Source of the DNA: Alphaproteobacteria bacterium
GTDB taxonomy: Bacteria; Pseudomonadota; Alphaproteobacteria; UBA828
Assembly: GCA_965221125.1 (NCBI GenBank)
Contig: CBDCRW010000004.1
Span: 672,001-736,000, forward strand
Length of the DNA stretch: 64,000 nt
Reading direction: 5' to 3'
Of this stretch, positions 1-50,231 are shown piece by piece (the stretch's first letter is position 1; every line of letters begins with the position of its first letter). The notes beneath the pieces were generated by a model. The model made no database searches and had not been told where the DNA came from. It saw only the letters and a list, made by a program, of their open reading frames with translations. Made by a program: the position numbers and the translations under genes.

Positions 1-364
1 TTTGACGTGATCGCTGCCCTGATTTCCCAGATTGCTCGGTCTTTTCCGGATCGAAGCGTAGGAGCTCATGGTCTCTGCGGGCGGTCCGGGGTCGCTGTCT
101 GATTGAGGTTTGGACTGGTGCTTGAGGAGAGCTGACGAGGTGTCGCGCGGCCGTCGGCGCGTCAAGCGGCTGCGCCGCTCCTGCGCTTCGCTTCGGCCCT
201 TCGGGTGACTCGCCACCGTCCACACGACGAAGTGCTGCCATGGCCTGAAGCAAGCTTCCGGCCACGGACTGGCCGCTCACCTGACGTAGTATCCCGGTGG
301 AGGCGCAGCGCCTTCCGGACCGTTGGGGAAGGGTGGTTCCCGACGGCGGTTCCGGCTCGAACCC

Positions 365-1405
365 CTAGGCGTTGGCGGAACCGGGCTCCGGGAACCGCGG
401 GGCCTGCGGCCGACTGCTGCCGTTGGCGGCGGCGGCCGCCGCCCGCTTGTCCGCTGCGCCTGCGACGACGCTGTAGCCGCCCTCGGCGTTGCGCGCGACG
501 CGACCCTCCTGGACGAGCTTTTGCAAGATTACGCCGACGGTCTTGTGCCGGGTCGCGGCGCGTTCCCGGATCTGGCGTTGCGAGAGCGGCGCCCCGGCGT
601 CGGCGAGCGCCTTGAGAACGCGGCATTCGGGTGTTTCGGGCTGAGGCGCCCCGCCGCCGGCCGTGGGCGGCTGGCGCAGCCGGAAGGAGGGCTCCTCTCC
701 GTCTTCCTTGAGCTCGATCTCGATGTCGTCGAGACCGCGTGCGGCGCGATGCTCGACGGTCATGAGGGTCTGCCGGTCCCGGCGGCGCAGGTAGAGGTTC
801 GAGTCCCCCCAGGCGTGCAGCTCACTGCTGCCCCGCAGGGCCTGCCCCGGCCTCGTGGCCCCGCTCTTGCGGGCGTGGTGGACGAGGAGGACGGCGGTCT
901 CGAAGCGGCGTTGCAGGTCGCGCAGGAAGCCGAGGATCGGGGCGACGTCCGCAACCGTGTTCTCGTCCACGCCGTGCAGGCGGACCAGGGGGTCGAGGAC
1001 CACGAGGCGCGGTGCGATGCGCTCCACGGTCTGCTGCAGGCGGCGGCGGTCGTCGAGATGGTCGAGGCGCAGTGTGGGCACGTCGATGACGGCGATGTCG
1101 AGGGTCTCGAAGCGGGCGCCTGCGGCGCGGGCGATCCCCTGCAGGCGCTTGCGCACGAGGTGGCCGGCGTCTTCTGCGGCGAACAGCAGGACCGGGCCAG
1201 GCCGGGCCGGGGCGAAGTGCCGCAGGCATGGGACGCCGGCGGCGACTGCGACCGCGAGGTCCAGCGCCAGGATGGACTTGCCGCACTTCGGCTCGCCGCC
1301 GACGATGCCGACGGCCTGCTCGCCCCATAGCGTGTCCACCAGCCATTGCTGCTCGCGCGGCCGCTCCTCCAGCTCGATCGGGGCGCGGGTCGGGAAGCCG
1401 GTCAT
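365..1405 (-). CDS. AAA_25 / RepA-like (RecA-fold) ATPase-helicase with C-terminal winged helix, ~346 aa
   Basis: Start MTGFPTRAP overlaps the upstream stop (ATGA). Walker A GEPKCGKS, Walker B LVVLDPL, LLVHHARK and LRGSSELHAWGD motifs; wHTH-like tail RVLKALADAGAPLSQRQIRE...GGYSVV. Confidence 0.8.
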   Translation of the reverse strand: MTGFPTRAPIELEERPREQQWLVDTLWGEQAVGIVGGEPKCGKSILALDLAVAVAAGVPCLRHFAPARPGPVLLFAAEDAGHLVRKRLQGIARAAGARFETLDIAVIDVPTLRLDHLDDRRRLQQTVERIAPRLVVLDPLVRLHGVDENTVADVAPILGFLRDLQRRFETAVLLVHHARKSGATRPGQALRGSSELHAWGDSNLYLRRRDRQTLMTVEHRAARGLDDIEIELKEDGEEPSFRLRQPPTAGGGAPQPETPECRVLKALADAGAPLSQRQIRERAATRHKTVGVILQKLVQEGRVARNAEGGYSVVAGAADKRAAAAAANGSSRPQAPRFPEPGSANA

Positions 1406-2205
1406 GGCCGCAGTTCCTCGAGCGCGTGCTGCAGGTGGTCGGCACTGACGGTCCTCGCCTCGTCGAGAGCGGCGGCGGAGAGCGCGTAGTGGGCGATGCG
1501 GTTGATCTGGCGCGGCAGGCCGCGCGCGCCCTGGAACAGGGCCTCGACGGCGGGCTCTTCGAACAGCGGCAGTTCGCATCCCGCGAGCCTGAGGCGGTGC
1601 TTGATGTAAGCGTCGACCTCGTCGCGGTCGAGACCGCTCAGGTGGTGGCGGACGACGAGGCGCTGGCTGAGGGATTCGTGCATGGCCATGGCCAGGCGGC
1701 GCCTGAGCTCGGTCAGACCGACGAGGACGAGGCACAGGCGCTGCTCTGCATCCATGGCGAAGTTGGTGAGCAGGCGCAGGTCCTCAAGGACGTCGTTGCG
1801 CAGATGATGGGCCTCGTCGATGACGAGGACCGGCAGCTGCTTGGCCTCGGTGACGAGGCGGGAGATCTCGTTTCGGATGGCCTGATAGGCCGAGGCGCGG
1901 GAGCGCTCGATGGGCAGGCCGATCTCCCACGCGATCGCCTTGTACATGTCGAGCACGTTGCCCGTGGTCAGCGAGACGTAGTGGACCCGGTAGAGGCCTG
2001 GATGAAGCTGCGCGGTCAGATGCCGGCACACGGTGGTCTTGCCGGAGCCCACCTCGCCGGTGAGCAGGCCGATGCCGCGCAGGTCGATGAGGTGGCCGAG
2101 CCTGGCCTCGGCCTCGCGGCGCGCGTTGGACTCGAACAGCTCGTCGGTCTCTGCCGGGGTCTCGAAGGGCAGGCGGGTGAAGGCGAAGTGGCGCAGGTAC
2201 ATCAC
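1402..2205 (-). CDS. ExeA/TnsC/TniB-like AAA+ transposition ATPase
   Basis: MYLRHFAFTRLPF start, Walker A GEVGSGKT, Walker B VLVIDEAH, GLPRQIN; coupled to the transposase stop. Confidence 0.88.
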   Translation of the reverse strand: MMYLRHFAFTRLPFETPAETDELFESNARREAEARLGHLIDLRGIGLLTGEVGSGKTTVCRHLTAQLHPGLYRVHYVSLTTGNVLDMYKAIAWEIGLPIERSRASAYQAIRNEISRLVTEAKQLPVLVIDEAHHLRNDVLEDLRLLTNFAMDAEQRLCLVLVGLTELRRRLAMAMHESLSQRLVVRHHLSGLDRDEVDAYIKHRLRLAGCELPLFEEPAVEALFQGARGLPRQINRIAHYALSAAALDEARTVSADHLQHALEELRP

Positions 2206-3530
2206 TCGTCCTCCTTCTTGTCCTTGAGGTTGCGCATGGCCAGCGGCGAGGGCGGAGGCTCGGGCGCCGGATCTTCGGCCTCGATCTCCCTGGCCGGGTA
2301 GGTGCGCCTGACGGCGGTATTGGCGTAGGCGTCGAGAGGGCTGGCCTTGCCGGCCGGCTTGCCGTCATGGACCACGTCGAGAGGGCGCGAGGGCGGCGCG
2401 GCCGGGTCGTAGCGCAGGATGACGTTCTGACCCACCAGGAGGGCGTCGACCTCGTAGACGCGGCCGTTCAGACTAACGGTGCGGTCCTTGTAGACACGGC
2501 GCCTGGCCTCGAAGAGGAACAGATCGTCGAGGTCCATGGTGGCGTCGGGATAGCGCACGCCGGCCGAGGCCAGCGCCCACTGCTCAAGCGGGGTGCGCCC
2601 CTCGTCGAGGCCACGATGCGGGCTGTTGTGATACTCCCCCTCGATCCAGGCCCAGAGGCTGCGGTTGAGCGCCTCCAGGCTGTCGACGTCATCGCCGAGG
2701 TGGCGGAGCCAGCCGGCCCGGAGGGTGCGGAAGAAGCGCTCGATCTTACCCTTTCCCGCTGGCTGGAACGCCCTTGCGTGAATCAACGCAACGCCGAGCC
2801 TGGCGCAGACCAGGGAGAGATGACGGGAGCGGTAGGCGCTTCCGTTGTCGACGTACAAGCGGGCCGGGAGGCCGCGCCGGATCAGCGCGTCCTTGAACAC
2901 CGGCAGGAACGCCGCAGTGTTCTCCGCCATGGCGAAGGCGGCGAACGGGATGACGCGGGTGGCGTCGTCGATGAAGGCGATCAGGTAGGTCTTGCGCCGG
3001 GTTCGGCCGTGCCGGACCTTGGGTCCGTGCATGACGTCGCTCATCCACATCTCGCCGGCATGCCGGAAGGCGAAGCGGCGGCGATCCGCCCCGTCGGGCG
3101 GCTTCTTGTCGAACAGGCCCTCGCGGCTGAAGAGGCGGTGCACGGTGGACGAGGCGAGCGGGTGGTCGATACCCTCCTCCTTGACCTTCTGGATGATGGC
3201 GCGAACCGACAATGCGTCGTTCTCGGTCTTCAGCGCGATGAGGCGCTCGGCGACCTCGGGCGGCAGCCGCCGGGGCTTCCCCCGGTCGGTGCGGGGCTTG
3301 GGGTAGAGCGCGTCGAAGCCGCCGTAGCGGTAGTCCTTGATCCAGCGCCGCATGGTCTCGGCGGCGACCCGGGTCCTGGTGGTTCCGGGGATCGTGTAGG
3401 TCTTCTCGGCTTTGGCGCGCATCATCGCGCCGGCACCCGGTGCACCCACGGGCAGATGCACCAGATCGGCGATGACGTCGTATCGGAAGAGCGCGATCTG
3501 TTGGCGAAGGTCGTCGTCTGAGCTGTTCAT
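2202..3530 (-). CDS. DDE transposase/integrase (HTH + rve core + Mu-transposase-like C-terminus)
   Basis: WMSDVMHG (D), LYVDNGSAY (D), GKIERFF (E), EYHNSPHRGL..TP; C-terminal RRVYKDRTVSLNGRVYEV. Confidence 0.92.
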   Translation of the reverse strand: MNSSDDDLRQQIALFRYDVIADLVHLPVGAPGAGAMMRAKAEKTYTIPGTTRTRVAAETMRRWIKDYRYGGFDALYPKPRTDRGKPRRLPPEVAERLIALKTENDALSVRAIIQKVKEEGIDHPLASSTVHRLFSREGLFDKKPPDGADRRRFAFRHAGEMWMSDVMHGPKVRHGRTRRKTYLIAFIDDATRVIPFAAFAMAENTAAFLPVFKDALIRRGLPARLYVDNGSAYRSRHLSLVCARLGVALIHARAFQPAGKGKIERFFRTLRAGWLRHLGDDVDSLEALNRSLWAWIEGEYHNSPHRGLDEGRTPLEQWALASAGVRYPDATMDLDDLFLFEARRRVYKDRTVSLNGRVYEVDALLVGQNVILRYDPAAPPSRPLDVVHDGKPAGKASPLDAYANTAVRRTYPAREIEAEDPAPEPPPSPLAMRNLKDKKEDE

Positions 3531-3575
3531 GGTGCGATCCTCGTTCAGGGACTCCCTGGCCCCGGGATCGTCACG

Positions 3576-4211
3576 CTACGAACTCTCCGGCGGCGGGTCC
3601 GGCCCCGCCCGTTGTTGGAACTGCGGTTTGCGATTCCCCACGTCGATGCCGTGGGGTTGGAAGCCCAGAGGCGCGGGTAGCGTCCGGAGCTGCCCGGCGA
3701 CCAGGCCGCGCAGTTCCATCAACGCGCTGTCGCTCTTCAGACGCTCGCGCACCGCGCTCATGGTGGGCGCGCAGCCCGCGAGCAGGTCGGGGATCAGGCC
3801 GATGACGCGCACAAGCGCGTCGTGCACAAGCTTCAGCCTGCGGCGGATCCAACGCACGGCGCCGGGAAGCTCGATGGCGTCCTCGTCCTCGGGGCAGCGC
3901 ACCTCGTCCGCTGCCTCCTCCAGGCTGCCGGCCTCCTCCGCCACGACAACAACCGCTTCCAGCGCATCGAGCGTGCCCGGCAGCCGCGCCGCCAGACAGT
4001 CGGCCAGCAGGCCGATGGTCGTATGGCTCTCACGGCAATACCAGCGAGGAACCCTTGCGCCGGGCGGGGTCTTCCGCTCGTAGGTGCCGTGGCTTGCCAC
4101 AGAACATCCGCCGTGCGGGTGATTCGGGCAGCGCTCAAGCCTTGCGTCGCGCCACGCCTCGGTCTTAACGTATTCCTCGCTGGTGAGCCCCGTTTCGTAG
4201 CGAAGCTGCAC
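3576..4211 (-). CDS. Cys/His-rich putative Zn-binding transposon protein (DUF6431-like)
   Basis: CPNH..C...HGTYER.....RWYCRESH pattern; first gene of the element operon; GTG start. Confidence 0.6.
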   Translation of the reverse strand: MQLRYETGLTSEEYVKTEAWRDARLERCPNHPHGGCSVASHGTYERKTPPGARVPRWYCRESHTTIGLLADCLAARLPGTLDALEAVVVVAEEAGSLEEAADEVRCPEDEDAIELPGAVRWIRRRLKLVHDALVRVIGLIPDLLAGCAPTMSAVRERLKSDSALMELRGLVAGQLRTLPAPLGFQPHGIDVGNRKPQFQQRAGPDPPPESS

Positions 4212-4300
4212 CGGCCCTGGCCCGGCGGGAGTTCCGTCCCCCGGGCCTCTCTTTGTCGTTCAGTGAGAGGCCAAGATTACGGACGCTCCCCGCCGCCGCC

Positions 4301-4434
4301 AAGCTGTGGAGCCGTGGACGCGTCCTGCGGACCGATCGGCGTCCTGCGGACCGTGTGGACAGCCCGTGGACAAGCTGGCGCTTGCCCACCGCCTGACCAC
4401 ACTCGCCGATCTCGCGCCCACCGCTCCACAGCTT
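4301..4434. other. Long imperfect hairpin in transposon leader (copy A)
   Basis: AAGCTGTGGAGC...GCTCCACAGCTT closing stem with nested stems; mirror of 45033-45166. Confidence 0.7.
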
Positions 4435-4580
4435 CAACAGCAATGAGGATTCTGCTGAGGATCAAAAAAATGCCGCAGGCAGCGTCCTTCCCGCACTCGG
4501 CCACCATCCCGGGAAATCCACCAACCAATCAAAGTGAGAAAAAAACCCGTGCTTCTATCCGGCTAGACCGGAAAACAACA

Positions 4581-8683: not shown

Positions 8684-9447
8684 GAAACAAACTCCTGAAG
8701 CAGGTTTTTCTGTTTCGATGGGACCAATTGTACAGGCAAGTGTTTCGTCACAAAATCAACGAGCTGCCAAAGTCCGCGCTGTTGGGTCGAGAAATAGAGA
8801 GTCTGTCACTAGTGTTGGAGATGTAGTCATTGTGGATCGCTTCATGACAGAGTGTTTGATGCGTCTTAGAATAGCGGATGAATCCGTTCCGACTATTGGC
8901 TGCGAAGTTGAAGGAGCACGTTTTCAAAATATCTAACCTCGGCTCGGCTCATTCAATGGCACGCATCAGTCAGTGCGCGGGGGGTTGGTGCCACAAAGTG
9001 AAGGTCGTGCGCCTTTGCTTGAAGGATGTACGGACGATTGACCAGCTGATTCACGAGGTTCGCATTTTCTCTCACCGTTGCGCGGCACTTCGTTCCAGGG
9101 AATTCATGAGGGGCGCGCGTTGGCCCACGCAGAGCGCTGCACATCTGGGACGAGGTCCAGAACTTCTTACCGGAAGCGGTTGGAACTCATCATAGCTTCG
9201 TTCGCATCCGCCGCAACGGGGCCGCGGCATTCACCTTCTACGGCTCGGCTTTTGTGGGGGTCTTGGGCGGCGTCGCGCGCAATTCTGGCGCAGGTCGGGG
9301 CCGTGCGCATGGGCGGGGGCCGCGAAGGAAGACGGCAGGGCGGCTATACATGACCGGCGGACTGGGGTCGTCAAGCCTCGCACAACATTCCGTGAGAAGG
9401 CCATCGCGCCAGCGTGCCTGGAGGTATCCACTATGTTTGGCGAACCC

Positions 9448-20592: not shown

Positions 20593-20731
20593 CGGCTCAG
20601 TTTCTGAAACCGGAGTGTGGCGTATGCATGCTGCCGGGGCAGCTGGATCTCGGCTGGGATGGATCGTGTCCCGAGGAGTGGTGTAAGAGCGTCGCGCTTT
20701 ACGCGGCATCCGGCGGGTAGGGCCGGGTTAT

Positions 20732-21928
20732 TCAGGCTGCCACAGCGGACAGCTTGATCGTGGGATTGTCGCTCAGGGGAGCGATCGATTCCAGCGTCAT
20801 GTACCTCCTTCCGACGGTCCATTCGTCGTTCTGCTCGAGCAGCACGGCGCCGACGAGGCGGGTGATGGCGTCCTCGTTGGGGAAGATGCCGACGACGTTG
20901 GTGCGTCGCTTGATCTCGCCGTTGACGCGTTCGAGCGGGTTGGTCGAGTGAAGCTTGACCCGGTGCTCCTTGGGGAAGCTCATGTAGGCGAGGACGTCGT
21001 GCTGGGCCTCGTCCATGAGGGCCGCCAGCTTGGAGGCCTTGGGCCTGAGCTGGTCGGCGATCAGGCGCCACTGGGCGGCAGCGGCCTCGGCATCGTCCTG
21101 GGCGAAGGCGGTGGCGACGAAGGCGGAGACGACGCGCCGGCCCTGCTTGCCGGCATGGGCCAGCAGGTTGCGCATGAAGTGGACGCGGCATCTCTGCCAG
21201 GTGGCGCCGAGGATCCGGGTGGTGGCGGCCTTCAGGCCCTTGTGGTCGTCGGAGATCACCAGCTGCACGCCGCGCAGGCCGCGCCTGGTCAGCGAGCGCA
21301 GGAACTCGGTCCAGAAGGTCTCGGCCTCGGAGGCGCCGATCGCCATGCCGAGGATCTCGCGCCGGCCCTGGTCGTTGACCGCGACGGCCACGGTGACCGC
21401 GACCGGGACGATGCGCCCGGCCTCGCGCACCTTCACGTAAGTCGCATCCAGCCAGAGATAGGGCCAGTCGCCTTCGAGCGGGCGGTCGAGGAAGCTGCGG
21501 ATCTTGTCGTCTATCTCCCCGCAAAGGCGCGAGACCTGGCTCTTCGATATCCCGCTCATGCCCATGGCCTGAACCAGTTCGTCGACCGAGCGGGTCGATA
21601 CCCCCTGGATGTAGGCCTCCTGGATCACCGCCGTGAGCGCCTTCTCCGCCGTCCGTCGGGGCTCCAGGAAGCCGGGGAAGTAGCTCCCCTTCCTGAGCTT
21701 CGGAATCTTCAGGTCGACCGTGCCGGCCCGGGTCTCCCAAGGCCGATCGCGGTAGCCGTTGCGCTGGTTGATCCGCTCCGGCGTCCGCGCGCCATGCTCG
21801 GCGCCGGTCAGGCCCTCGACTTCCAGCTCCATAAGGCGCTGCGCAGAGAAGGCGATCATCTCACGCAGCAGATCGGCGTCAGAGCTCTTCTCCAACAGCG
21901 TCCGCAGGGTAAGCTTGTCATCGGTCAT
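20732..21928 (-). CDS. IS256-family transposase
   Basis: [49 protein letters not shown]. Confidence 0.96.
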
Positions 21929-21999
21929 CGTGGTTCTCCTTAGGCTCGGGTCGATTCGGATTCACCCAAACCCTAAACCGGAACCGCGATGGCCACCCC

Positions 22000-22068
22000 G
22001 CTGTGGATAACCGGCTTGGCGCCACCAGACTCGAGGGCGGTCGCGGCGCCAAGCCGGTTACCCACAGC
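22000..22068. other. Hairpin in IS256 leader
   Basis: GCTGTGGATAACCGGCTTGGCGCC ... GGCGCCAAGCCGGTTACCCACAGC, 23/24 paired. Confidence 0.75.
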
Positions 22069-22864
22069 TACCGGGGGTAGCGGGAGCTCCTACACCACGT
22101 CTGGGGACACAACCCTGGGATGCGCGAGGGCGCGGTCGATCTATGTGGAACCCGAACGCTGATGACATCTGGCGGTTCCGTTAGCTGCAGCGGACTTCGC
22201 TGCGAGCCGGACCAACGGCCCCGCCGGCGGCAATCGCTTTCGGCCTCGTGAGCGCGCTCCCGGCATCTGACGGTGGTGTAATCAGACCATTTGATGGGCC
22301 TCAAGCGGCCCATCCGGGCGAGCCAGCACGGAGGATCGGGTTGCCAGCCGAAACGCTGAAGCGGAACGGGCACGGCCTACCACGGATGGTCACAAAGGAC
22401 CGCGACAGTGCGTGAGAACTGCGGAACGTGAGGGGTATCCACTACCGGGTGTGGGCCGCGATGCGCAAGTCGGTAGACTGACTGCAGATGTGGCGGTAGC
22501 CGTCGAGCGTCGCGTTGATCCGCGACGAGGCTAACGGCGCCGATTGCAAGCTTCCTTACATCAGATATTTAGTCTGATCCCGATCATGGTCAGGAGATGG
22601 CCTGAGAGATCACGAGATAGATTATTCGGGGTGTGCGCCGCCATCTCCCGGTCGGGAGGGGGCTGGAGGAGTCTCCTGGTTCCATCATCGAAGTACCTAT
22701 AGGGTACCGACCAACTCTCGGGAAATCGGGCGGGCGATAATCGAGAAATTGGGAAATCAAGAGAGTCAATGCGGGGATTTCTGAACAAGCTAGGAACATG
22801 TTTTACTTTTCAATGACCCACATTGCATTGCGGGCTTGGGAAAGAGCAGTGAGGAAGAGTCAGA

Positions 22865-23689
22865 ATGAAGAAGATCCTATCGGGCCGTCAACTGGAGCGT
22901 ACAGTCGCCGTGCTGCTGGAGAAGTCCGATTGGACCGTGGAAGTCCAGAGAGCTTGCCATGGTTTGCTGGTCGATATCTGGGCATCAGACAAGCACGGTG
23001 AAAATCTCATTGTAGAGTGCAAAGCTTATCGAAAGCTCTTAGGTGTCGCTACTGCACGTCAGTTTGTAGCCGCTGTCAGTGTGCTCCGTCAGGAGCAACC
23101 CACACTGGAAGCATGGTTGGTTACGATCTCCGGGTTTACACCGAACGCTCTTGCACTGCTTACGCGATACAACATCACGGGCATGACGCTTGAGGAGGTG
23201 TTCGCGAGACTTGGCAAGAATAGGGAAGAGCTGAAGATAGAGGACGTAGACTTAAGAAAGGAAGATAGCCAAGCGTATTCAGGCAGTACGCGAGTGTTTG
23301 TTATCATGCCGTTCAGCGATGATATGTTGGATGTGTTCATTTTGGGCATTCGTTCCGTTACTGAGAAGCTTGACATGGTTGCTAAACGAGCAGATGACAT
23401 TGATCACAGTGGCCAAATCATTGAAGAAATTCAATCTGCAATTCGAGAGTACGATATTGTTATTGGAGATACTTCAGGTGCGAATCCAAATGTCTGTTAC
23501 GAGGTTGGATTTGCGCACGGAGTGGGTAAGCAATGTATCCTAATTTGTAAGAAGGGGAATAAGCTTCCGTTCGATCTTCAGGGGATGAACCATCTCATCT
23601 ACAAGAATATTCTCGATCTTCGGCCCCAGCTTGAAAACAAACTGAAACAAGTCAGGGAGCACACCGATGGTGGGGAAAAGAAACCTTGA
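22865..23689 (+). CDS. Mrr-like restriction endonuclease domain fused to nucleoside 2-deoxyribosyltransferase-like domain
   Basis: N-term VDIWA..IVECKAY..LVTISGFT; C-term VFVIMPF..RADD..ANPNVCYEVGFAHG..LPFDL; low GC. Confidence 0.75.
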   Translation: MKKILSGRQLERTVAVLLEKSDWTVEVQRACHGLLVDIWASDKHGENLIVECKAYRKLLGVATARQFVAAVSVLRQEQPTLEAWLVTISGFTPNALALLTRYNITGMTLEEVFARLGKNREELKIEDVDLRKEDSQAYSGSTRVFVIMPFSDDMLDVFILGIRSVTEKLDMVAKRADDIDHSGQIIEEIQSAIREYDIVIGDTSGANPNVCYEVGFAHGVGKQCILICKKGNKLPFDLQGMNHLIYKNILDLRPQLENKLKQVREHTDGGEKKP

Positions 23690-23784
23690 AGTGGAAGTTG
23701 CGTGGAATGCTACCATGGCCACCACATTGTTGAGGGGCGGCCGCCGTCGACCAAACGGGACAGAGCATAATTGGAGCATCGGAA

Positions 23785-24135
23785 ATGCCTGAGAATAGCG
23801 GCAATAGCGCGTGGCTTGTGACTTGGGAAAACGCTGGCCAGGACAATCGTTCGGTGGAATTGGTATTACCCGATGAACTGCCGGTGGAGCGAGTGAAGTG
23901 GTTGGTTCAAGAGTTGTATCTTGCCAAGACGGCATCAGACGCCGAGAAGCACGATTCAGGTCTCAATCGACGCGTTGCTTATCCTGCGGAAATATCGAAA
24001 ACGAAACGAGGCAATGATCACATTGTGTGCGGCCATAACCCCTATTTGTTGGCCCGGCGCGTCGAAGGTCTGAGCCTCCAGACGGATGATGACGGGGAGA
24101 GGGCCGAATACCTGGTTTGGACCGAGCTTCATTAG
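23785..24135 (+). CDS. Hypothetical protein
   Basis: 116-aa ORF with GGAG RBS, co-oriented with neighbours. Confidence 0.55.
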   Translation: MPENSGNSAWLVTWENAGQDNRSVELVLPDELPVERVKWLVQELYLAKTASDAEKHDSGLNRRVAYPAEISKTKRGNDHIVCGHNPYLLARRVEGLSLQTDDDGERAEYLVWTELH

Positions 24136-33891: not shown

Positions 33892-35061
33892 TCACTGCAT
33901 CCTATTCATGAATTCGTCGAAGAGCGGAACGGTGAAGGCGGCATAACCATATCTCGGGCTGAAGATCATGCCGTTATGGATCAGCGCTTCGCGGGTGGGG
34001 CCGAGCTGTTGGGATGACTTGCCAAGCTCCTTGGCGATCTGCCCGGTTCGGTGAGGACCAGGGCCGCATCTCGCCATGGCGTGCAGATAAGCCTTCTGTG
34101 GATCCGACAATCGTTCATACCGCGATCTGAAGAAGTTGCGGTCCAGTCGCTCGATCACGGCGGTGCTGGCTTTCTCCAAGTCCTTCACGGTAATGGGAGT
34201 GACTTGTGCGGTATTCCATGCCTGATATCCCCATTCCTGAAGGAAGTAGGGATATCCCTGCGTTGCGGCTATGACCTCGCTAATCGCCTCTTCCTCGAAT
34301 TCGACATCTGCCCGCGCCGCCGGCCTGACCAGCGCACGTCTCGCCTCGACCGGTTCGAGGGGGCCTATATCCGGATACTCGAAGAGGCGCTCCGCATAGG
34401 TTTTCGCTTCGCCCGTGAGTCTGACCACGAGCGGCAGCCCTGCGCCAACGACGAGCAAGGGGAGCCGCTTCTGGTCTACCCGATGCACCGCCATAATCAG
34501 CGCCTCGAACTCCTCTCGCGACAGGTTCTGGATTTCGTCAATGAGGATCACGATGGAAGTGTCGCGGGCCCTGGCCGCCTCACCGGCGGCAATGAAAACT
34601 TCCCCGAGATCACGGCTCAGTGTGCCGCTGTCCGCGATACCCGGTTCGCTATCGATGTCCACGGCGAACTCGATACCCTCCACCTTGATCCTTATCGCCC
34701 CGACGAAGCTCTTCAACACGCGCAACCCGGTCTTTACATGTTCGTTCACTCCCTTGGCCCGGTCGAGCTTCAGCAGAAGCGAGCGCAGGGTTGCGACGAT
34801 TGTCTTCGACAGGGGTTCGTGATTGCCGATTTCGATGAAATCTGACAGCGCACCCTCCTCGTCCGCTATGGCCTGGGCCTCATTCAGCAATACCGTCTTG
34901 CCGACCCCGCGCAGCCCCACGAACATGAGGCTACGAGCCGATTGCCCGGATCTGTTGCGCTGTATGGCGAGCCGGGCATCGGCAAGAACGCCGTCGCGAC
35001 CTGCGAGTTCCGGCGGAGGCGTGCCCGCTCCTGGGGCATACGGGTTCACACGAGGGTCCAT
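33892..35061 (-). CDS. P-loop ATPase (AAA_16-like) with C-terminal wHTH
   Basis: NPYAPGAG..LAGRD, GLRGVGKT, ILIDEIQ, GYPYFLQ. Confidence 0.85.
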   Translation of the reverse strand: MDPRVNPYAPGAGTPPPELAGRDGVLADARLAIQRNRSGQSARSLMFVGLRGVGKTVLLNEAQAIADEEGALSDFIEIGNHEPLSKTIVATLRSLLLKLDRAKGVNEHVKTGLRVLKSFVGAIRIKVEGIEFAVDIDSEPGIADSGTLSRDLGEVFIAAGEAARARDTSIVILIDEIQNLSREEFEALIMAVHRVDQKRLPLLVVGAGLPLVVRLTGEAKTYAERLFEYPDIGPLEPVEARRALVRPAARADVEFEEEAISEVIAATQGYPYFLQEWGYQAWNTAQVTPITVKDLEKASTAVIERLDRNFFRSRYERLSDPQKAYLHAMARCGPGPHRTGQIAKELGKSSQQLGPTREALIHNGMIFSPRYGYAAFTVPLFDEFMNRMQ

Positions 35062-35239
35062 TCAGTCACCTCTAGAATGTTTAGCCATTGCTAGCATAAA
35101 CATTACCGGCGCACACCAGTTTATAGAACATCCCGATAAACTTCCTACAACCTGAGCTCTGTTCGCTCCGGTCACGCGCTCTCCCCTGCCAGACCCTCGG
35201 ATCACCTCCTGTTTCCGAACAAGGTCCTGCACGATTACG

Positions 35240-36151
35240 CTACCCTAAGACCCCTTTGCCCTCACTTTCTTCGGCCCGGATCTGATCCAACTCTTGGGTA
35301 ATTTCACGCCATACCTGTTCCGTCACCTGTTGCACGTCGTGCTTCAAATCGCCTTGGCCCATCCTCTCCAAGACTATGGAATTCGCCTCCACCCTCAGCT
35401 CGCTCATCGATTTCGCAACGGCATCTTCTATCAGCTCACTCACGTACTCCTGCTTGATTACAAAGCCGTAGTCATCGGCAACTAGGCTCCTCGCATACAT
35501 CACTCCAAGCAGACGATAACGCCTGTCGTATGAGACAAATACTGGTCCTCCACTGTTACCTCCCAACACCGTTCCATCGATAGCGATCAGACCTTTTCCA
35601 CTACAATCCATCGAAGGAATCGATGCTATCGACCCCTTGCGCATCAATGCCAAGCCGTTCAGAGTATCCTTCATTCCGTTCGGATATCCTGCATACAATA
35701 CCTTACTACCGACTCCGAACCGGTCATATTCCAACTTATGCAGAAAGCCAGGCCCCAGTATCGGTACATCGTACCCCTTCGTCTCTATTCCTCTCAGGTC
35801 CAAACATGCCAAATCTATTTCTTCATCCTTGTGTCCGGTGTAGCGATGCACGGCCCGATCAATCCTGATCCGATCCTGCTTCCCGAATCTTACTTGTCCG
35901 TTCGAATCCTTCTTATTGAGCAAAATCACCTGAGTGCCCACACCCTCAGCGAGAACATGCTTGTTGGAAATGAGGAGCAGGCAATCAATTCTCGGACCTT
36001 CTTCAAGCTGTCCCAATGCTTGGACAAAGAATCCAGTGCCTGTCCACTGTATTTTATCGTCGAACTCTACCGAAACTTCGATGGCGACGCGGGTTGCATG
36101 ATGATTGAAGTAATCTTGTCCCATATCCGCCTCCTTAAAGGGGCGAGACAT
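35240..36151 (-). CDS. Trypsin-like serine protease
   Basis: GTGFF, SNKHV (His), DLACL (Asp), GGNSGGPV (Ser); low GC. Confidence 0.85.
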   Translation of the reverse strand: MSRPFKEADMGQDYFNHHATRVAIEVSVEFDDKIQWTGTGFFVQALGQLEEGPRIDCLLLISNKHVLAEGVGTQVILLNKKDSNGQVRFGKQDRIRIDRAVHRYTGHKDEEIDLACLDLRGIETKGYDVPILGPGFLHKLEYDRFGVGSKVLYAGYPNGMKDTLNGLALMRKGSIASIPSMDCSGKGLIAIDGTVLGGNSGGPVFVSYDRRYRLLGVMYARSLVADDYGFVIKQEYVSELIEDAVAKSMSELRVEANSIVLERMGQGDLKHDVQQVTEQVWREITQELDQIRAEESEGKGVLG

Positions 36152-44338: not shown

Positions 44339-45032
44339 TCCCCCTTCTTCGCGGAGTACCCGCTCCCGGCACCGTCTTCCGATGAGCGGGGTTTCGTGTT
44401 TGGGCCGTGGCGCCGAACAGGAATTGGCGCCTTGCTGCTGCGCGCTCCCGCGGCAGGGAGGCGCTCCGCCAACCTTTCCTTGCAAGTCCCAATGGAAGAA
44501 CCACCGGGACTGTCACGTCCGGCCCGATCTGGTCCTGATCTACCGCAAGCCCGACGCCGGACATCTCGATCTCGTGCGTCTCGGCTCGCACAGCCAACTC
44601 GGCCTCTGACCGGCCGCGCCTTCCGGACCCCCGCGATCCCCGCCCTCCAATAGTCGGCCGACGCTCCGGTCCACGACCCGAGGCACTTTCCCCAGGGCCG
44701 GCCGCCGCTCATCCGCCGTCGCCCGCGCGCCGTCTTCCACCGTTTCCGATACCGCCGCACCGCACCGTCCGCCGTTTCCGGCGGCGGCGACGGTCGGGCT
44801 GCGCCTCCCGGAGCCGGAGAGCAGCCGGTCGGGGGCGGGCGTGGGCAGGCGGCGAGAGCCGGCTGCGCCGCGCCGGTGCAACCCTCTGTTGTTTTCCGGT
44901 CTAGCCGGATAGAAGCACGGGTTTTTTTCTCACTTTGATTGGTTGGTGGATTTCCCGGGATGGTGGCCGAGTGCGGGAAGGACGCTGCCTGCGGCATTTT
45001 TTTGATCCTCAGCAGAATCCTCATTGCTGTTG

Positions 45033-45166
45033 AAGCTGTGGAGCGGTGGGCGCGAGATCGGCGAGTGTGGTCAGGCGGTGGGCAAGCGCCAGCTTGTCCA
45101 CGGGCTGTCCACACGGTCCGCAGGACGCCGATCGGTCCGCAGGACGCGTCCACGGCTCCACAGCTT
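45033..45166. other. Long imperfect hairpin in transposon leader (copy B)
   Basis: 12-bp perfect closing stem, nested GATCGGCG/CGCCGATC and GTGGGCAAGC/GCTTGTCCAC stems, CGGTCCGCAGGACGC x2. Confidence 0.7.
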
Positions 45167-45255
45167 GGCGGCGGCGGGGAGCGTCCGTAATCTTGGCCTC
45201 TCACTGAACGACAAAGAGAGGCCCGGGGGACGGAACTCCCGCCGGGCCAGGGCCG

Positions 45256-45891
45256 GTGCAGCTTCGCTACGAAACGGGGCTCACCAGCGAGGAATACGTT
45301 AAGACCGAGGCGTGGCGCGACGCAAGGCTTGAGCGCTGCCCGAATCACCCGCACGGCGGATGTTCTGTGGCAAGCCACGGCACCTACGAGCGGAAGACCC
45401 CGCCCGGCGCAAGGGTTCCTCGCTGGTATTGCCGTGAGAGCCATACGACCATCGGCCTGCTGGCCGACTGTCTGGCGGCGCGGCTGCCGGGCACGCTCGA
45501 TGCGCTGGAAGCGGTTGTTGTCGTGGCGGAGGAGGCCGGCAGCCTGGAGGAGGCAGCGGACGAGGTGCGCTGCCCCGAGGACGAGGACGCCATCGAGCTT
45601 CCCGGCGCCGTGCGTTGGATCCGCCGCAGGCTGAAGCTTGTGCACGACGCGCTTGTGCGCGTCATCGGCCTGATCCCCGACCTGCTCGCGGGCTGCGCGC
45701 CCACCATGAGCGCGGTGCGCGAGCGTCTGAAGAGCGACAGCGCGTTGATGGAACTGCGCGGCCTGGTCGCCGGGCAGCTCCGGACGCTACCCGCGCCTCT
45801 GGGCTTCCAACCCCACGGCATCGACGTGGGGAATCGCAAACCGCAGTTCCAACAACGGGCGGGGCCGGACCCGCCGCCGGAGAGTTCGTAG
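45256..45891 (+). CDS. Cys/His-rich putative Zn-binding transposon protein (DUF6431-like)
   Basis: Identical to 3576-4211. Confidence 0.6.
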   Translation: MQLRYETGLTSEEYVKTEAWRDARLERCPNHPHGGCSVASHGTYERKTPPGARVPRWYCRESHTTIGLLADCLAARLPGTLDALEAVVVVAEEAGSLEEAADEVRCPEDEDAIELPGAVRWIRRRLKLVHDALVRVIGLIPDLLAGCAPTMSAVRERLKSDSALMELRGLVAGQLRTLPAPLGFQPHGIDVGNRKPQFQQRAGPDPPPESS

Positions 45892-45936
45892 CGTGACGAT
45901 CCCGGGGCCAGGGAGTCCCTGAACGAGGATCGCACC

Positions 45937-47265
45937 ATGAACAGCTCAGACGACGACCTTCGCCAACAGATCGCGCTCTTCCGATACGACGTCATCGCCG
46001 ATCTGGTGCATCTGCCCGTGGGTGCACCGGGTGCCGGCGCGATGATGCGCGCCAAAGCCGAGAAGACCTACACGATCCCCGGAACCACCAGGACCCGGGT
46101 CGCCGCCGAGACCATGCGGCGCTGGATCAAGGACTACCGCTACGGCGGCTTCGACGCGCTCTACCCCAAGCCCCGCACCGACCGGGGGAAGCCCCGGCGG
46201 CTGCCGCCCGAGGTCGCCGAGCGCCTCATCGCGCTGAAGACCGAGAACGACGCATTGTCGGTTCGCGCCATCATCCAGAAGGTCAAGGAGGAGGGTATCG
46301 ACCACCCGCTCGCCTCGTCCACCGTGCACCGCCTCTTCAGCCGCGAGGGCCTGTTCGACAAGAAGCCGCCCGACGGGGCGGATCGCCGCCGCTTCGCCTT
46401 CCGGCATGCCGGCGAGATGTGGATGAGCGACGTCATGCACGGACCCAAGGTCCGGCACGGCCGAACCCGGCGCAAGACCTACCTGATCGCCTTCATCGAC
46501 GACGCCACCCGCGTCATCCCGTTCGCCGCCTTCGCCATGGCGGAGAACACTGCGGCGTTCCTGCCGGTGTTCAAGGACGCGCTGATCCGGCGCGGCCTCC
46601 CGGCCCGCTTGTACGTCGACAACGGAAGCGCCTACCGCTCCCGTCATCTCTCCCTGGTCTGCGCCAGGCTCGGCGTTGCGTTGATTCACGCAAGGGCGTT
46701 CCAGCCAGCGGGAAAGGGTAAGATCGAGCGCTTCTTCCGCACCCTCCGGGCCGGCTGGCTCCGCCACCTCGGCGATGACGTCGACAGCCTGGAGGCGCTC
46801 AACCGCAGCCTCTGGGCCTGGATCGAGGGGGAGTATCACAACAGCCCGCATCGTGGCCTCGACGAGGGGCGCACCCCGCTTGAGCAGTGGGCGCTGGCCT
46901 CGGCCGGCGTGCGCTATCCCGACGCCACCATGGACCTCGACGATCTGTTCCTCTTCGAGGCCAGGCGCCGTGTCTACAAGGACCGCACCGTTAGTCTGAA
47001 CGGCCGCGTCTACGAGGTCGACGCCCTCCTGGTGGGTCAGAACGTCATCCTGCGCTACGACCCGGCCGCGCCGCCCTCGCGCCCTCTCGACGTGGTCCAT
47101 GACGGCAAGCCGGCCGGCAAGGCCAGCCCTCTCGACGCCTACGCCAATACCGCCGTCAGGCGCACCTACCCGGCCAGGGAGATCGAGGCCGAAGATCCGG
47201 CGCCCGAGCCTCCGCCCTCGCCGCTGGCCATGCGCAACCTCAAGGACAAGAAGGAGGACGAGTGA
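45937..47265 (+). CDS. DDE transposase (Mu/TnsB-like)
   Basis: Identical to 2202-3530. Confidence 0.92.
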   Translation: MNSSDDDLRQQIALFRYDVIADLVHLPVGAPGAGAMMRAKAEKTYTIPGTTRTRVAAETMRRWIKDYRYGGFDALYPKPRTDRGKPRRLPPEVAERLIALKTENDALSVRAIIQKVKEEGIDHPLASSTVHRLFSREGLFDKKPPDGADRRRFAFRHAGEMWMSDVMHGPKVRHGRTRRKTYLIAFIDDATRVIPFAAFAMAENTAAFLPVFKDALIRRGLPARLYVDNGSAYRSRHLSLVCARLGVALIHARAFQPAGKGKIERFFRTLRAGWLRHLGDDVDSLEALNRSLWAWIEGEYHNSPHRGLDEGRTPLEQWALASAGVRYPDATMDLDDLFLFEARRRVYKDRTVSLNGRVYEVDALLVGQNVILRYDPAAPPSRPLDVVHDGKPAGKASPLDAYANTAVRRTYPAREIEAEDPAPEPPPSPLAMRNLKDKKEDE

Positions 47266-48065
47266 TGTACCTGCGCCACTTCGCCTTCACCCGCCTGCCC
47301 TTCGAGACCCCGGCAGAGACCGACGAGCTGTTCGAGTCCAACGCGCGCCGCGAGGCCGAGGCCAGGCTCGGCCACCTCATCGACCTGCGCGGCATCGGCC
47401 TGCTCACCGGCGAGGTGGGCTCCGGCAAGACCACCGTGTGCCGGCATCTGACCGCGCAGCTTCATCCAGGCCTCTACCGGGTCCACTACGTCTCGCTGAC
47501 CACGGGCAACGTGCTCGACATGTACAAGGCGATCGCGTGGGAGATCGGCCTGCCCATCGAGCGCTCCCGCGCCTCGGCCTATCAGGCCATCCGAAACGAG
47601 ATCTCCCGCCTCGTCACCGAGGCCAAGCAGCTGCCGGTCCTCGTCATCGACGAGGCCCATCATCTGCGCAACGACGTCCTTGAGGACCTGCGCCTGCTCA
47701 CCAACTTCGCCATGGATGCAGAGCAGCGCCTGTGCCTCGTCCTCGTCGGTCTGACCGAGCTCAGGCGCCGCCTGGCCATGGCCATGCACGAATCCCTCAG
47801 CCAGCGCCTCGTCGTCCGCCACCACCTGAGCGGTCTCGACCGCGACGAGGTCGACGCTTACATCAAGCACCGCCTCAGGCTCGCGGGATGCGAACTGCCG
47901 CTGTTCGAAGAGCCCGCCGTCGAGGCCCTGTTCCAGGGCGCGCGCGGCCTGCCGCGCCAGATCAACCGCATCGCCCACTACGCGCTCTCCGCCGCCGCTC
48001 TCGACGAGGCGAGGACCGTCAGTGCCGACCACCTGCAGCACGCGCTCGAGGAACTGCGGCCATGA
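47262..48065 (+). CDS. ExeA/TnsC-like AAA+ ATPase
   Basis: Identical to 1402-2205. Confidence 0.88.
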   Translation: MMYLRHFAFTRLPFETPAETDELFESNARREAEARLGHLIDLRGIGLLTGEVGSGKTTVCRHLTAQLHPGLYRVHYVSLTTGNVLDMYKAIAWEIGLPIERSRASAYQAIRNEISRLVTEAKQLPVLVIDEAHHLRNDVLEDLRLLTNFAMDAEQRLCLVLVGLTELRRRLAMAMHESLSQRLVVRHHLSGLDRDEVDAYIKHRLRLAGCELPLFEEPAVEALFQGARGLPRQINRIAHYALSAAALDEARTVSADHLQHALEELRP

Positions 48066-49102
48066 CCGGCTTCCCGACCCGCGCCCCGATCGAGCTGGAG
48101 GAGCGGCCGCGCGAGCAGCAATGGCTGGTGGACACGCTATGGGGCGAGCAGGCCGTCGGCATCGTCGGCGGCGAGCCGAAGTGCGGCAAGTCCATCCTGG
48201 CGCTGGACCTCGCGGTCGCAGTCGCCGCCGGCGTCCCATGCCTGCGGCACTTCGCCCCGGCCCGGCCTGGCCCGGTCCTGCTGTTCGCCGCAGAAGACGC
48301 CGGCCACCTCGTGCGCAAGCGCCTGCAGGGGATCGCCCGCGCCGCAGGCGCCCGCTTCGAGACCCTCGACATCGCCGTCATCGACGTGCCCACACTGCGC
48401 CTCGACCATCTCGACGACCGCCGCCGCCTGCAGCAGACCGTGGAGCGCATCGCACCGCGCCTCGTGGTCCTCGACCCCCTGGTCCGCCTGCACGGCGTGG
48501 ACGAGAACACGGTTGCGGACGTCGCCCCGATCCTCGGCTTCCTGCGCGACCTGCAACGCCGCTTCGAGACCGCCGTCCTCCTCGTCCACCACGCCCGCAA
48601 GAGCGGGGCCACGAGGCCGGGGCAGGCCCTGCGGGGCAGCAGTGAGCTGCACGCCTGGGGGGACTCGAACCTCTACCTGCGCCGCCGGGACCGGCAGACC
48701 CTCATGACCGTCGAGCATCGCGCCGCACGCGGTCTCGACGACATCGAGATCGAGCTCAAGGAAGACGGAGAGGAGCCCTCCTTCCGGCTGCGCCAGCCGC
48801 CCACGGCCGGCGGCGGGGCGCCTCAGCCCGAAACACCCGAATGCCGCGTTCTCAAGGCGCTCGCCGACGCCGGGGCGCCGCTCTCGCAACGCCAGATCCG
48901 GGAACGCGCCGCGACCCGGCACAAGACCGTCGGCGTAATCTTGCAAAAGCTCGTCCAGGAGGGTCGCGTCGCGCGCAACGCCGAGGGCGGCTACAGCGTC
49001 GTCGCAGGCGCAGCGGACAAGCGGGCGGCGGCCGCCGCCGCCAACGGCAGCAGTCGGCCGCAGGCCCCGCGGTTCCCGGAGCCCGGTTCCGCCAACGCCT
49101 AG
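48062..49102 (+). CDS. AAA_25 / RepA-like ATPase-helicase with wHTH
   Basis: Identical to 365-1405. Confidence 0.8.
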   Translation: MTGFPTRAPIELEERPREQQWLVDTLWGEQAVGIVGGEPKCGKSILALDLAVAVAAGVPCLRHFAPARPGPVLLFAAEDAGHLVRKRLQGIARAAGARFETLDIAVIDVPTLRLDHLDDRRRLQQTVERIAPRLVVLDPLVRLHGVDENTVADVAPILGFLRDLQRRFETAVLLVHHARKSGATRPGQALRGSSELHAWGDSNLYLRRRDRQTLMTVEHRAARGLDDIEIELKEDGEEPSFRLRQPPTAGGGAPQPETPECRVLKALADAGAPLSQRQIRERAATRHKTVGVILQKLVQEGRVARNAEGGYSVVAGAADKRAAAAAANGSSRPQAPRFPEPGSANA

Positions 49103-49507
49103 GGGTTCGAGCCGGAACCGCCGTCGGGAACCACCCTTCCCCAACGGTCCGGAAGGCGCTGCGCCTCCACCGGGATACTACGTCAGGTGAGCGGCCAGTC
49201 CGTGGCCGGAAGCTTGCTTCAGGCCATGGCAGCACTTCGTCGTGTGGACGGTGGCGAGTCACCCGAAGGGCCGAAGCGAAGCGCAGGAGCGGCGCAGCCG
49301 CTTGACGCGCCGACGGCCGCGCGACACCTCGTCAGCTCTCCTCAAGCACCAGTCCAAACCTCAATCAGACAGCGACCCCGGACCGCCCGCAGAGACCATG
49401 AGCTCCTACGCTTCGATCCGGAAAAGACCGAGCAATCTGGGAAATCAGGGCAGCGATCACGTCAAATAATCTGGGAGATTCGGCGTCAAATAACGTGCGA
49501 AACAACA

Positions 49508-50231
49508 CGGGGCCGACCAGGATAGCCACGTTGCGCGCATGCAGGTCCCGGACCTTGGCCGGACACCTCTGCCACGCCGGGTGGTGGGGCTCTGCCGCGG
49601 CCCGGAGCTTCCGCAACTCCTGCGCCTTCAACGCGCGACCCTCGGTCTCGCTCCAGCCGTTGTAGCCGCGCCAGGGTAGGTAAACGGTCCGCCGCTCGGC
49701 GGGCGCGGCGCGGGCGAAGGCATCGTCGGCGCCCTTCGCGCCGCCGGTGCGCAGGAACCAGCCGCGCCCGGCCAGGTTGGTGGCCATATCCCTCATCACG
49801 TTGAGCACGGGTTCGGGCGTCTTGCGCGCGCCGACGCCGGCATAGATCGGCGTCGGCCCGATCGGCGCCTCAATCTTCTCCCCCGGCTGCCAGGTCCTGT
49901 CGGCAGCCAGCCGCGCATGAGCCCACGACGCGGCCTTCGCGAGAATGTCCCCGTGACAAGGCAGCGGATGGCAATGACAGGCCAGGGTCTTTCCGTTCAG
50001 CGCCGCGAGCTCCGCCAGGGGAATCCCGCCGCTCTTCACCTTGCCCCAGAGCCAGTTGCGGTAGCGCTCGATGACCTCCTCGCGATTGCCGTGTCTGCCG
50101 ATCACGAAGGGATTGCCCCAGCGCGTGCGGCGATCGATCCGCACCACATCGCCATGCTCGTTCGTGCCCTCCAGAGCCGCGCGCAGATCGGGCCGGTCCT
50201 TCATGTTGACGACGGTGGCCATGCCGCTCAT
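49508..50231 (-). pseudogene. 5' half of split DUF4326-SLOG gene
   Basis: VRIDRRTRWGNPF..LNGKTLACHCHPLPCHGDIL (DUF4326), then YAGVGARKTP..LRTGGAKGADDAF (SLOG/DprA-like); cut at ARNVAILVGP by the transposon. Confidence 0.88.

Follow-up and report, generated by a model that had tools for sequence, protein, structure and literature searches.

Within a 64,000-nucleotide stretch of DNA from an alphaproteobacterium of the lineage UBA828 (assembly GCA_965221125.1, contig CBDCRW010000004.1, forward-strand positions 672,001 to 736,000; this whole stretch is hereafter the window), we find a 4621-bp transposon at positions 44887-49507 that is very probably a Tn6049-type element carrying a swapped-in cassette. 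Comparison of related sequences presents the position after its third open reading frame (ORF3) as a conserved but exchangeable accessory slot: the last gene is interchangeable and can encode a small acidic protein, a primase-like protein or, as ORF4 does in the window, a helicase-like protein. The helicase-like cassette, which includes a conserved structured noncoding segment, has moved between backbones that share about a quarter of their transposase residues.

Results

The element consists, from left to right, of genes for a small Cys/His protein (ORF1), a DDE transposase (ORF2), an AAA+ ATPase (ORF3) and ORF4. As the initial annotation had noted, the last three genes overlap, with a GTGATG junction between ORF2 and ORF3 and an ATGA junction between ORF3 and ORF4. 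Relatives were collected by a metagenome scan seeded with ORF1, from which we took the best 80 of 549 confirmed loci (46-80% ORF1 identity); the nearest kin are under-sampled in this set because the scan pattern misses the window's own ORF1. Twenty-six relatives could be evaluated, their ORF3 being complete and followed by 250 bp or more of sequence. The fourth slot is filled in 21 of these by an acidic ORF of about 70 residues (63-78 aa) and in two by an AAA_25 gene (matching at 84% in L114 and at 49% in L129, the latter also with a winged helix); three have neither.

The small ORF starts at or near the ORF3 stop; W[TS][PA]EQALAV forms its conserved core and Qx[DE]LF ... DDP[LI]PF its C-terminal tail. 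It belongs to no Pfam family. Its profile matches the 71-aa ORF of Tn6049 (3.5e-7) and detects no counterpart in the window element or at any locus with ORF4. Because no ORF4-bearing locus has the small ORF, ORF4 replaces it rather than being added to it. Examples of the small ORF lie at L160:3147-3380, L175:3547-3756 and L195:5247-5459 (Tn6049), with 20 further loci. A third kind of occupant is found in an element of about 4.0 kb with TGTTG ends (L102:8048-12052, genome G441), whose ORF1-3 are 44%, 53% and 58% identical to those of the window. Its fourth gene matches DUF3991 (9e-10), Toprim_2 (6.8e-9) and phage DNA primase families, and its genome contains 15 full copies, all identical, along with two derivatives that have internal deletions (G441:C1:1108991-1109434 and C3:38477-38920). 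The Toprim-bearing element at L102 sits directly beside a helicase-bearing one.

An ORF4 scan with one genome per species returned 80 loci, from records titled as metagenome-assembled genomes of Alphaproteobacteria, Dehalococcoidia/Chloroflexota, Poribacteria, Acidobacteria, Gemmatimonadota and Acidimicrobiales. Among copies with enough upstream DNA, an ORF3-like gene lies directly upstream of ORF4 in 77 of 79, the transposase is present in 71 of 75 and the first gene in 63 of 71; these counts are not independent, since they represent 39 distinct ORF4 sequences, and the misses are truncated copies. The initial annotation had regarded ORF4 as core machinery. The tight linkage to ORF3 and the transposase agrees with that view, but an AAA_25 gene occurs in only 2 of the 26 ORF1-seeded relatives. 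ORF4 is thus absent from most relatives in this sample (21 of the 26 carry the small ORF, and the lineage-A element L112, described below, lacks ORF4), which in part refutes the core role, although the slot itself is conserved.

ORF4 is found on two backbones. Lineage A has TGTTG ends and ORF1-3 that are at least 72% identical to those of the window element. Lineage B, typified by a 4409-bp element (L089:3908-8316), has TGAGCG ends and a 4-5-bp duplication; its transposase and ATPase are 25-33% identical to those of the window, and its ORF4 is 64-80% identical. Within lineage A, identities of ORF1-4 to the window are 81, 79, 84 and 80% in L033 and 72, 79, 85 and 77% in L042; because ORF4 there diverges about as ORF2 and ORF3 do, the contrast between lineages is not a rate difference. 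A quick maximum-likelihood tree, built from 45 distinct ORF4 sequences and rooted only at the midpoint, places the 17 lineage-A-linked sequences in one clade (Shimodaira-Hasegawa-like approximate likelihood-ratio support 99) beside the 28 that are linked to lineage B. The tree is compatible with a single gene exchange between the backbones, which may have gone in either direction.

The limits of DNA alignment place the borders of the exchanged block. L112, a metagenome contig, carries a 3515-bp element with the same TGTTGTTT tips, ORF1, ORF2 and ORF3 that are 80%, 77% and 85% identical to those of the window, and no ORF4. Its DNA is 81.6% identical to the window element over element positions 277-3179, stopping exactly at the ORF3 stop codon. 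Lineage-B DNA aligns only over element positions 3171-4442 (window 48057-49328), that is, over ORF4 and about 226 bp beyond it; the last ~180 bp of the element are unaligned. The window element is thus a three-part mosaic: its left end with ORF1-3 and its right end are of lineage A, and the ORF4 cassette between them is shared by both lineages. Elements with ORF4 64-99% identical (L025-L104) occur in metagenome-assembled genomes labelled as six phyla, and the run labels of near-identical DNA include sponge, marine and coral metagenomes. This spread could reflect cross-phylum transfer within one habitat or a mis-binned high-copy repeat.

Inside the ~226 bp downstream of ORF4, RNAalifold and covariation delineate a conserved noncoding element of about 130 nt (49198..49323, forward strand), made up of a hairpin (49198-49233) and a branched domain (49241-49323). 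This segment accompanies ORF4 on both backbones and is more conserved than the gene (86% over L043 positions 4304-4442, versus 78% for ORF4). Its alignment comprises 18 distinct versions from both lineages with a mean column identity of 83%, and contains 1-nt indels, which make it likely that the segment is noncoding. In the predicted fold 97.1% of cells are paired and 8 of 49 pairs show two-sided changes, versus 2.6 in column shuffles; none of 500 shuffles reaches any of five measures. Sliding the partners by 1-3 columns gives 1-3 such pairs, in a control that flatters the fold because the structure was derived from the same alignment. Several pairs vary via G-U, and for this reason the ORF4-sense strand is favored. 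The segment may act either as RNA or as single-stranded DNA.

ORF4 (48062..49102, forward strand, 346 aa) combines an AAA_25 RecA-fold ATPase domain (residues 11-182; Pfam 9.4e-37, 127 bits against a cut-off of 27) with a MarR_2-like C-terminal winged helix (residues ~259-313; 2.5e-5). The nearest solved relative of a 15-sequence profile is the RSF1010 RepA helicase (1g8y, 2.9e-12). The GKS, AED, VLD, HHA-K and RGSS stretches align with 1g8y and are invariant across the 15 homologues; we take them to be the RepA Walker A motif, catalytic Glu, Walker B motif, sensor His and Arg finger. In PHROG, ORF4 has matches to primase/helicase families of phages, over their helicase parts; the PADLOC defense-system library contains no match to it. 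Mean column identity is 77% over the 15 sequences, which come from several phyla, and 7882 of 8000 candidate proteins scored are homologues at E<=1e-3. A tblastn search of 72,556 plasmids gave no ORF4 match at 1e-5, possibly as a filter effect; AAA_25 RepA-like genes are common on plasmids, so this lack is unexpected. Two fusion proteins were seen, one of ORF3 with ORF4 (P0004, 597 aa) and one of ORF1 with the transposase (P0296, 638 aa), each on a single contig where a frameshift or lost stop codon is possible.

The window (G000:C4:672001-736000) belongs to a 4.58-Mb genome in 7 contigs, and the borders of the element within it are exact. TGTTGTTT begins at 44887 and AAACAACA ends at 49507; these are the tips of the left (44887..44894) and right (49500..49507) terminal inverted repeats, both given on the forward strand, and the 26 bases from 44887 are present twice in the window. 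Just inside the right tip lie two direct copies of CGTCAAATAA (49460-49469 and 49484-49493, forward strand). Similar repeats are also found in relatives, and the two copies are probable transposase-binding sites. The end pattern did not arise by chance in any of 100 shuffles. A second, inverted copy is clipped by the window edge (1..4580, reverse strand) and is whole in the contig (G000:C4:671960-676580).

Where the initial annotation counted two identical copies, blastn over the seven contigs finds 20, all at 100% identity, 17 of them uninterrupted and 3 split by a 1453-bp insertion sequence (IS); 20 left and 20 right ends were counted genome-wide. Exact 5-bp duplications flank 15 copies, a 4-bp duplication fits two, one has a single mismatch, and two, both in the window, have swapped flanks. 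Twenty identical copies with target duplications indicate that the element is real and recently active. The exact ends and the 15 exact duplications bear out the description of a four-gene TG..CA transposon with a 5-bp duplication and a Mu/Tn7-like transposase-ATPase pair. At the 15 sites the duplication shows a weak CCNGG-like preference, with C at position 1 in 8 and at position 2 in 11, and G at position 4 in 8 and at position 5 in 9. No attachment site was found among the insertion sites in the genome, and the element contains no cargo beyond its four genes. The GC skew stays within about +/-0.05 and is patchy across the seven contigs, too weak for an orientation-bias test.

Beyond this genome, ORF4 matches occur in 13 of 40 relatives' genomes and number 14 in G005, 27 in G008, 51 or more in G009, 10 in G011 and 28 in G013, all genus-mates. 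An even 400-genome sample of the phylum, with 7 candidates scored per genome, gave no ORF1-family match in any of the 400 other genomes, and the element DNA has two trivial matches only in the plasmid collection. In four RNA-library runs, assembled contigs span relatives of the element over its full length, in most cases at less than 95% likeness; such contigs cannot show transcription, transcript ends or strand, and DNA carry-over is possible.

The three backbone genes lie on the forward strand. ORF1 (45256..45891, 211 aa) encodes a probable Zn-binding Cys/His protein in which C28, H31, C36, H41 and C59 are invariant among 25 close homologues. It has no Pfam or NCBIfam match, and its profile finds nothing meaningful among PDB sequences (best E = 1.6). 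The family is large, with 1297 matches in one search and 961 cluster representatives at E<=1e-3 in an exhaustive search. A remote link to DUF6431 comes from the ESM Atlas, where ORF1 adjoins DUF6431 clusters with a score of 0.98, and from 5 of 40 diverse family members that match DUF6431 weakly (best E = 0.0023). ORF2 (45937..47265, 442 aa) has HTH_32, rve and Mu-transpos_C domains (Pfam) and matches the transposase family phrog_310 (3.2e-49). Its nearest solved relative is the type V-K TnsB 7svw (5.2e-7), in agreement with a PADLOC TnsB match (2.6e-7), and it scores 201.9 bits against the NCBIfam IS481 model, under the cut-off of 224, and 43.1 bits against the IS21 model, for which the cut-off is 160.

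ORF3 (47262/47265-48065, 266-267 aa) is an AAA+ ATPase of the AAA_22/ExeA type (AAA_22, 5.6e-27) that resembles ExeA/PEP-CTERM-type ATPases in NCBIfam. MuB is its nearest solved relative (1e-3), and it matches phrog_296, annotated as a "DNA transposition protein" (1.4e-29). The match to the TniB Pfam model is below threshold (20.8 bits, cut-off 22.4), that to PADLOC TnsC_V-K is weak (9.5e-4), and the 25 best of its 29 Pfam matches include no IstB family. The four proteins contain no TniQ, TnsA or resolvase family at E<=0.1 (Pfam), and none of 40 ORF1-family members matches TniQ, in keeping with the initial annotation, which had reported no TniQ.

Several observations concern the surroundings of the element. 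The 1453-bp IS encodes a 409-aa transposase, presumably of the IS256/Mutator-like family, and has 14 identical copies in the genome, including window 20662-22114 and G000:C7:276233-277685, C6:194952-196404 and C5:758404-759856. Three copies lie within 4.6-kb elements near their ends, and two more within ~0.7 kb of other element copies. Window positions 7001-9000, 23001-24000 and 35001-36000 have 47-52% G+C, versus 60-73% elsewhere in the window; these stretches, which may be foreign islands, fall within the ~40 kb that separate the two inverted copies of the element. At the right flank, a 288-aa open frame on the reverse strand (49508-50231) runs from the flank into the element end, where a host gene may have been interrupted or lengthened by the insertion; frames are unreliable in such G+C-rich DNA.

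Discussion

In regard to function, the starting points are the anatomy of the element, its recent activity, the exchange of the module and the variability of the slot. By family membership, ORF2 would bind the subterminal repeats, nick the TG..CA tips and join them to target DNA with a 5-bp (sometimes 4-bp) stagger, ORF3 would act as a MuB/TnsC-like AAA+ ATPase that prepares or delivers the target, and ORF1 might serve as a Zn-binding DNA-binding or regulatory partner. The transposase would cut 3' ends only, so that strand transfer leaves forked joints; we infer that these would need replication or repair because no TnsA, the 5'-end nuclease, and no resolvase were found in the four proteins. 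It may well be that the slot holds a replication-coupling accessory, a reading we adopt tentatively and in which the occupant here is the ORF4 helicase. ORF4 would load at the forks or at its own structured site, perhaps via the winged helix, and unwind the DNA so that the element is copied. We favor a link between slot and replication because it is the simplest common denominator of the known occupants, namely an ATPase of helicase type, a Toprim protein of primase type and a mini-protein whose tail is clamp-like.

The translational coupling of ORF4 to ORF3 and the lack of TniQ, TnsD and TnsE in the element would also suit a target selector or adaptor of the TnsE, TniQ or TnsD kind, in which ORF4 senses DNA structure or a fork and signals ORF3, which recruits the transposase. 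ORF4 takes the position of a small protein with what we presume to be a clamp-like Qx[DE]LF tail, TnsE of Tn7 selects targets through the sliding clamp, and the one 597-aa ORF3-ORF4 fusion, from a single contig, would fit a direct partnership. However, the insertion sites offer no attachment site and only the weak CCNGG-like preference (C at position 2 in 11 of 15), and one kind of ORF4 is paired with ATPases that are 25-33% identical, which is a poor fit to a co-evolved selector-ATPase contact. A Toprim protein is also hard to see as a selector. The Toprim and Qx[DE]LF-tail occupants lean toward the replication link, and we consider a selector role for ORF4 unlikely.

Alternatively, ORF4 and its segment could be a passenger or selfish module, such as a remnant of plasmid, integrative and conjugative element or satellite replication, that plays no part in transposition. 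Such an origin would accord with the absence of ORF4 from most relatives, with its movement as a discrete block between backbones and with the frequency of AAA_25 proteins in plasmid and phage replication modules. A passenger would not be expected always to take the same slot with an ATGA overlap with ORF3 on both backbones, nor to substitute for the small ORF in elements that still reach 20 to 51 or more copies without it; the element has no other cargo, and ORF4 is strongly conserved (77% mean column identity over 15 sequences). This explanation seems to us distinctly unlikely. A further possibility is that ORF4 and the segment form a mini-replicon that amplifies excised transposon circles as episomes before reintegration. 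The transposase is IS481-like (201.9 bits), and members of IS481 are thought to move by copy-paste in the portion of PMC6794481 that treats them; a helicase-type gene with an adjoining conserved structured site resembles a replication cassette, and copy numbers are very high. Against this, the assembly contains no abutted right-left end junction and the element no initiator or primase, while direct strand transfer of the Mu/Tn7 kind is indicated by the AAA+ ATPase and by the Mu-type C-terminal domain of the transposase. We therefore regard a mini-replicon as very unlikely.

Several results weigh against the replication-coupling reading itself. Since most relatives lack ORF4, transposition in the family does not require it. 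AAA_25 includes ATPases other than helicases, and the winged helix suits an initiator, a regulator or a target-binding protein equally; the helicase activity of ORF4, a replicative mode of transposition and the role of the structured segment are inferred. The Qx[DE]LF tail is a putative sliding-clamp-binding motif only, by its resemblance to the published pentapeptide consensus. AlphaFold2 models of ORF4 (15 alignment rows, mean predicted local distance difference test [pLDDT] score 53, with only the winged helix at residues ~259-313 confident) and of ORF1 (25 rows, pLDDT 46) are unusable. The single-sequence folding energy of the segment is ordinary (z = -0.85 and -0.72), and the one Rfam match within the element at E<=1 is at chance level (0.92). 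The genome assembly contains no solo ends, no cointegrates and no circle junctions with ends abutted.

The inversion adjacent to the element is of no help on this point. The initial annotation took it to be the product expected from intramolecular replicative transposition, and the swapped flanks do fit: the copy at 44887 has CCCTC on its left and CGGGG on its right, and the inverted copy has CGGGG on its left and CCCTC on its right. These flanks are not diagnostic, however, because homologous recombination between two inverted copies, each flanked by its own duplication, predicts the same arrangement (flanks x and y at one copy, y and x at the other), and we rejected the inversion as evidence for replicative transposition. 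A search of 20 relatives for the uninterrupted flank gave no orthologous site, the best match being 72% identical and ending 15 bp short; the flank DNA of the window copies is 69% GC.

Our findings bear on a broader question about transposition. Among transposition machines, DDE transposons with an AAA+ partner, including Mu, Tn7, Tn5053 and IS21, are understood best, and CRISPR-guided insertion tools are based on them. To our knowledge, all of these are believed to depend on the host for replicating or repairing the joined product. The Tn6049-type family offers a natural experiment on the handover from strand transfer to replication. The slot pattern is likely to surprise specialists and can be tested directly; the mechanism proposed for it is our own extrapolation. 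The slot could even be a general replisome-coupling site in Tn6049-type transposons, filled by a clamp-binding mini-protein, a Toprim primase-like protein or a RepA-type helicase, the latter with a structured loading site, and allowing replication without the host restart primosome. We think this generalization somewhat unlikely; if true, self-sufficient replication would explain the spread to 20-50 copies per genome across six labelled phyla.

Comparison with known systems

Tn7, Tn5053/Tn402 and CRISPR-associated transposons share with the window element a TnsB-like transposase and an AAA+ regulator, and these systems likewise combine TG..CA ends with subterminal repeats and a 5-bp duplication. 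Unlike them, the window element has no TnsA, TniQ/TnsD, TnsE, Cas or resolvase and carries no cargo. Tn5053/Tn402 differ in that the window ATPase is of the ExeA/AAA_22 type, with TniB under the cut-off, and that the element has no TniQ or resolvase match. IS481 elements are single-gene ISs with TGT ends; the window element does start with TGT but fails the family model, has four genes and is 4.6 kb long. From IS21 it is set apart by an ORF2 far under the IS21 model cut-off and by the lack of IstB among the listed ORF3 matches.

Phage Mu comes close in several respects, as shown by the Mu-transpos_C domain, the phrog_310 and phrog_296 matches and the MuB-like ORF3, although the element itself is not a phage. 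Mu has a weak palindromic 5-bp target preference, like that of the window element, and depends on its host's restart primosome for helicase loading once the strands have been transferred, whereas a helicase-type gene is carried on the window element itself. ORF4 resembles RSF1010 RepA and phage primase-helicases in its AAA_25 fold and in the stretches for nucleotide binding and sensing that align; it differs from RSF1010 RepA in its extra C-terminal winged helix and in residing in a DDE transposon rather than a replicon. Helitrons, casposons and Polintons also encode their own replication proteins, with HUH Rep, Cas1 and an integrase with PolB as their respective recombinases, but this is a functional analogy only, as they have no sequence relationship to the window element.

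Two candidate relatives were rejected. TnRErm46/ISRe46, in the part of PMC6794481 that describes it, is an IS481 element that encodes one transposase and targets CTAG. The other, Tn552, was suggested by 408 Staphylococcus plasmids that match ORF2; Staphylococcus is absent from the ten commonest genera of 122 ORF3-matching plasmid records and from the 30 matches listed, so the ATPases are not close. A literature search, in which ISfinder, TnCentral and most subscription journals were not covered, found no DDE transposon with a RepA-type helicase or Toprim protein in such a slot. A term search of a survey of Tn7 target selectors (PMC10293859) likewise returned no RepA, AAA_25, RecA, ExeA or DnaB. 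The backbone is thus Tn6049-like and known; the helicase cassette, its structured companion, the transfer between backbones and the exchangeable-slot pattern are not found described.

The nearest annotated relatives are sets of DUF6431, transposase and AAA genes on Geobacillus pGS18, Pandoraea and Streptomyces plasmids, with 38-39% identity to ORF2 and 33-36% to ORF3. The pGS18 set is annotated as a DUF6431 protein, an IS481-family transposase and an AAA ATPase, in agreement with the ESM Atlas lead for ORF1. These sets differ from the window element in having no AAA_25 gene and in being annotated as separate genes, not as an element.

Tn6049, known from Cupriavidus metallidurans CH34 and Pseudomonas aeruginosa pHS87a, has the same order of a small Cys-rich/HTH ORF, an IS481-family transposase and a GspA/ExeA-like ATPase, and likewise has TG..CA imperfect repeats, a 4-5-bp duplication and multiple copies. 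The sections of the literature that describe it give a size of 3.5 kb, 12 copies in CH34 and a "gspA" ATPase gene that is always carried (PMC2864759), as well as 12-bp imperfect inverted repeats and 4-bp direct repeats (PMC4739549); no mechanism of transposition was found in these sections. On pMOL30 we find a 181-aa ORF, a 479-aa IS481-family transposase, a 277-aa AAA ATPase and a 71-aa ORF between TGTGC..GCACA ends, with a duplicated CTATC; ORF3 of the window also matches Cupriavidus metallidurans plasmids. Lineage B is the closer kin of Tn6049, their first three proteins being 41%, 50% and 51% identical, whereas in the window ORF2 is 26% and ORF3 28% identical to the Tn6049 proteins and ORF1 has no BLAST match. 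Homology of the first genes is not supported by hhalign either (E = 0.3 for the ORF1 family of lineage A against that of lineage B and Tn6049). The two elements differ in their last gene, Tn6049 having 3.5 kb with a 71-aa fourth ORF and the window element 4621 bp with an AAA_25 gene. The initial annotation recognized no named family in this architecture: its three-gene core does match a named transposon, although one whose "transposition module could not be categorized" in the relevant passage of PMC6210171. The exchangeable slot provides a first functional handle on these named but uncategorised elements, and the helicase version directs attention to a conserved structured noncoding element.

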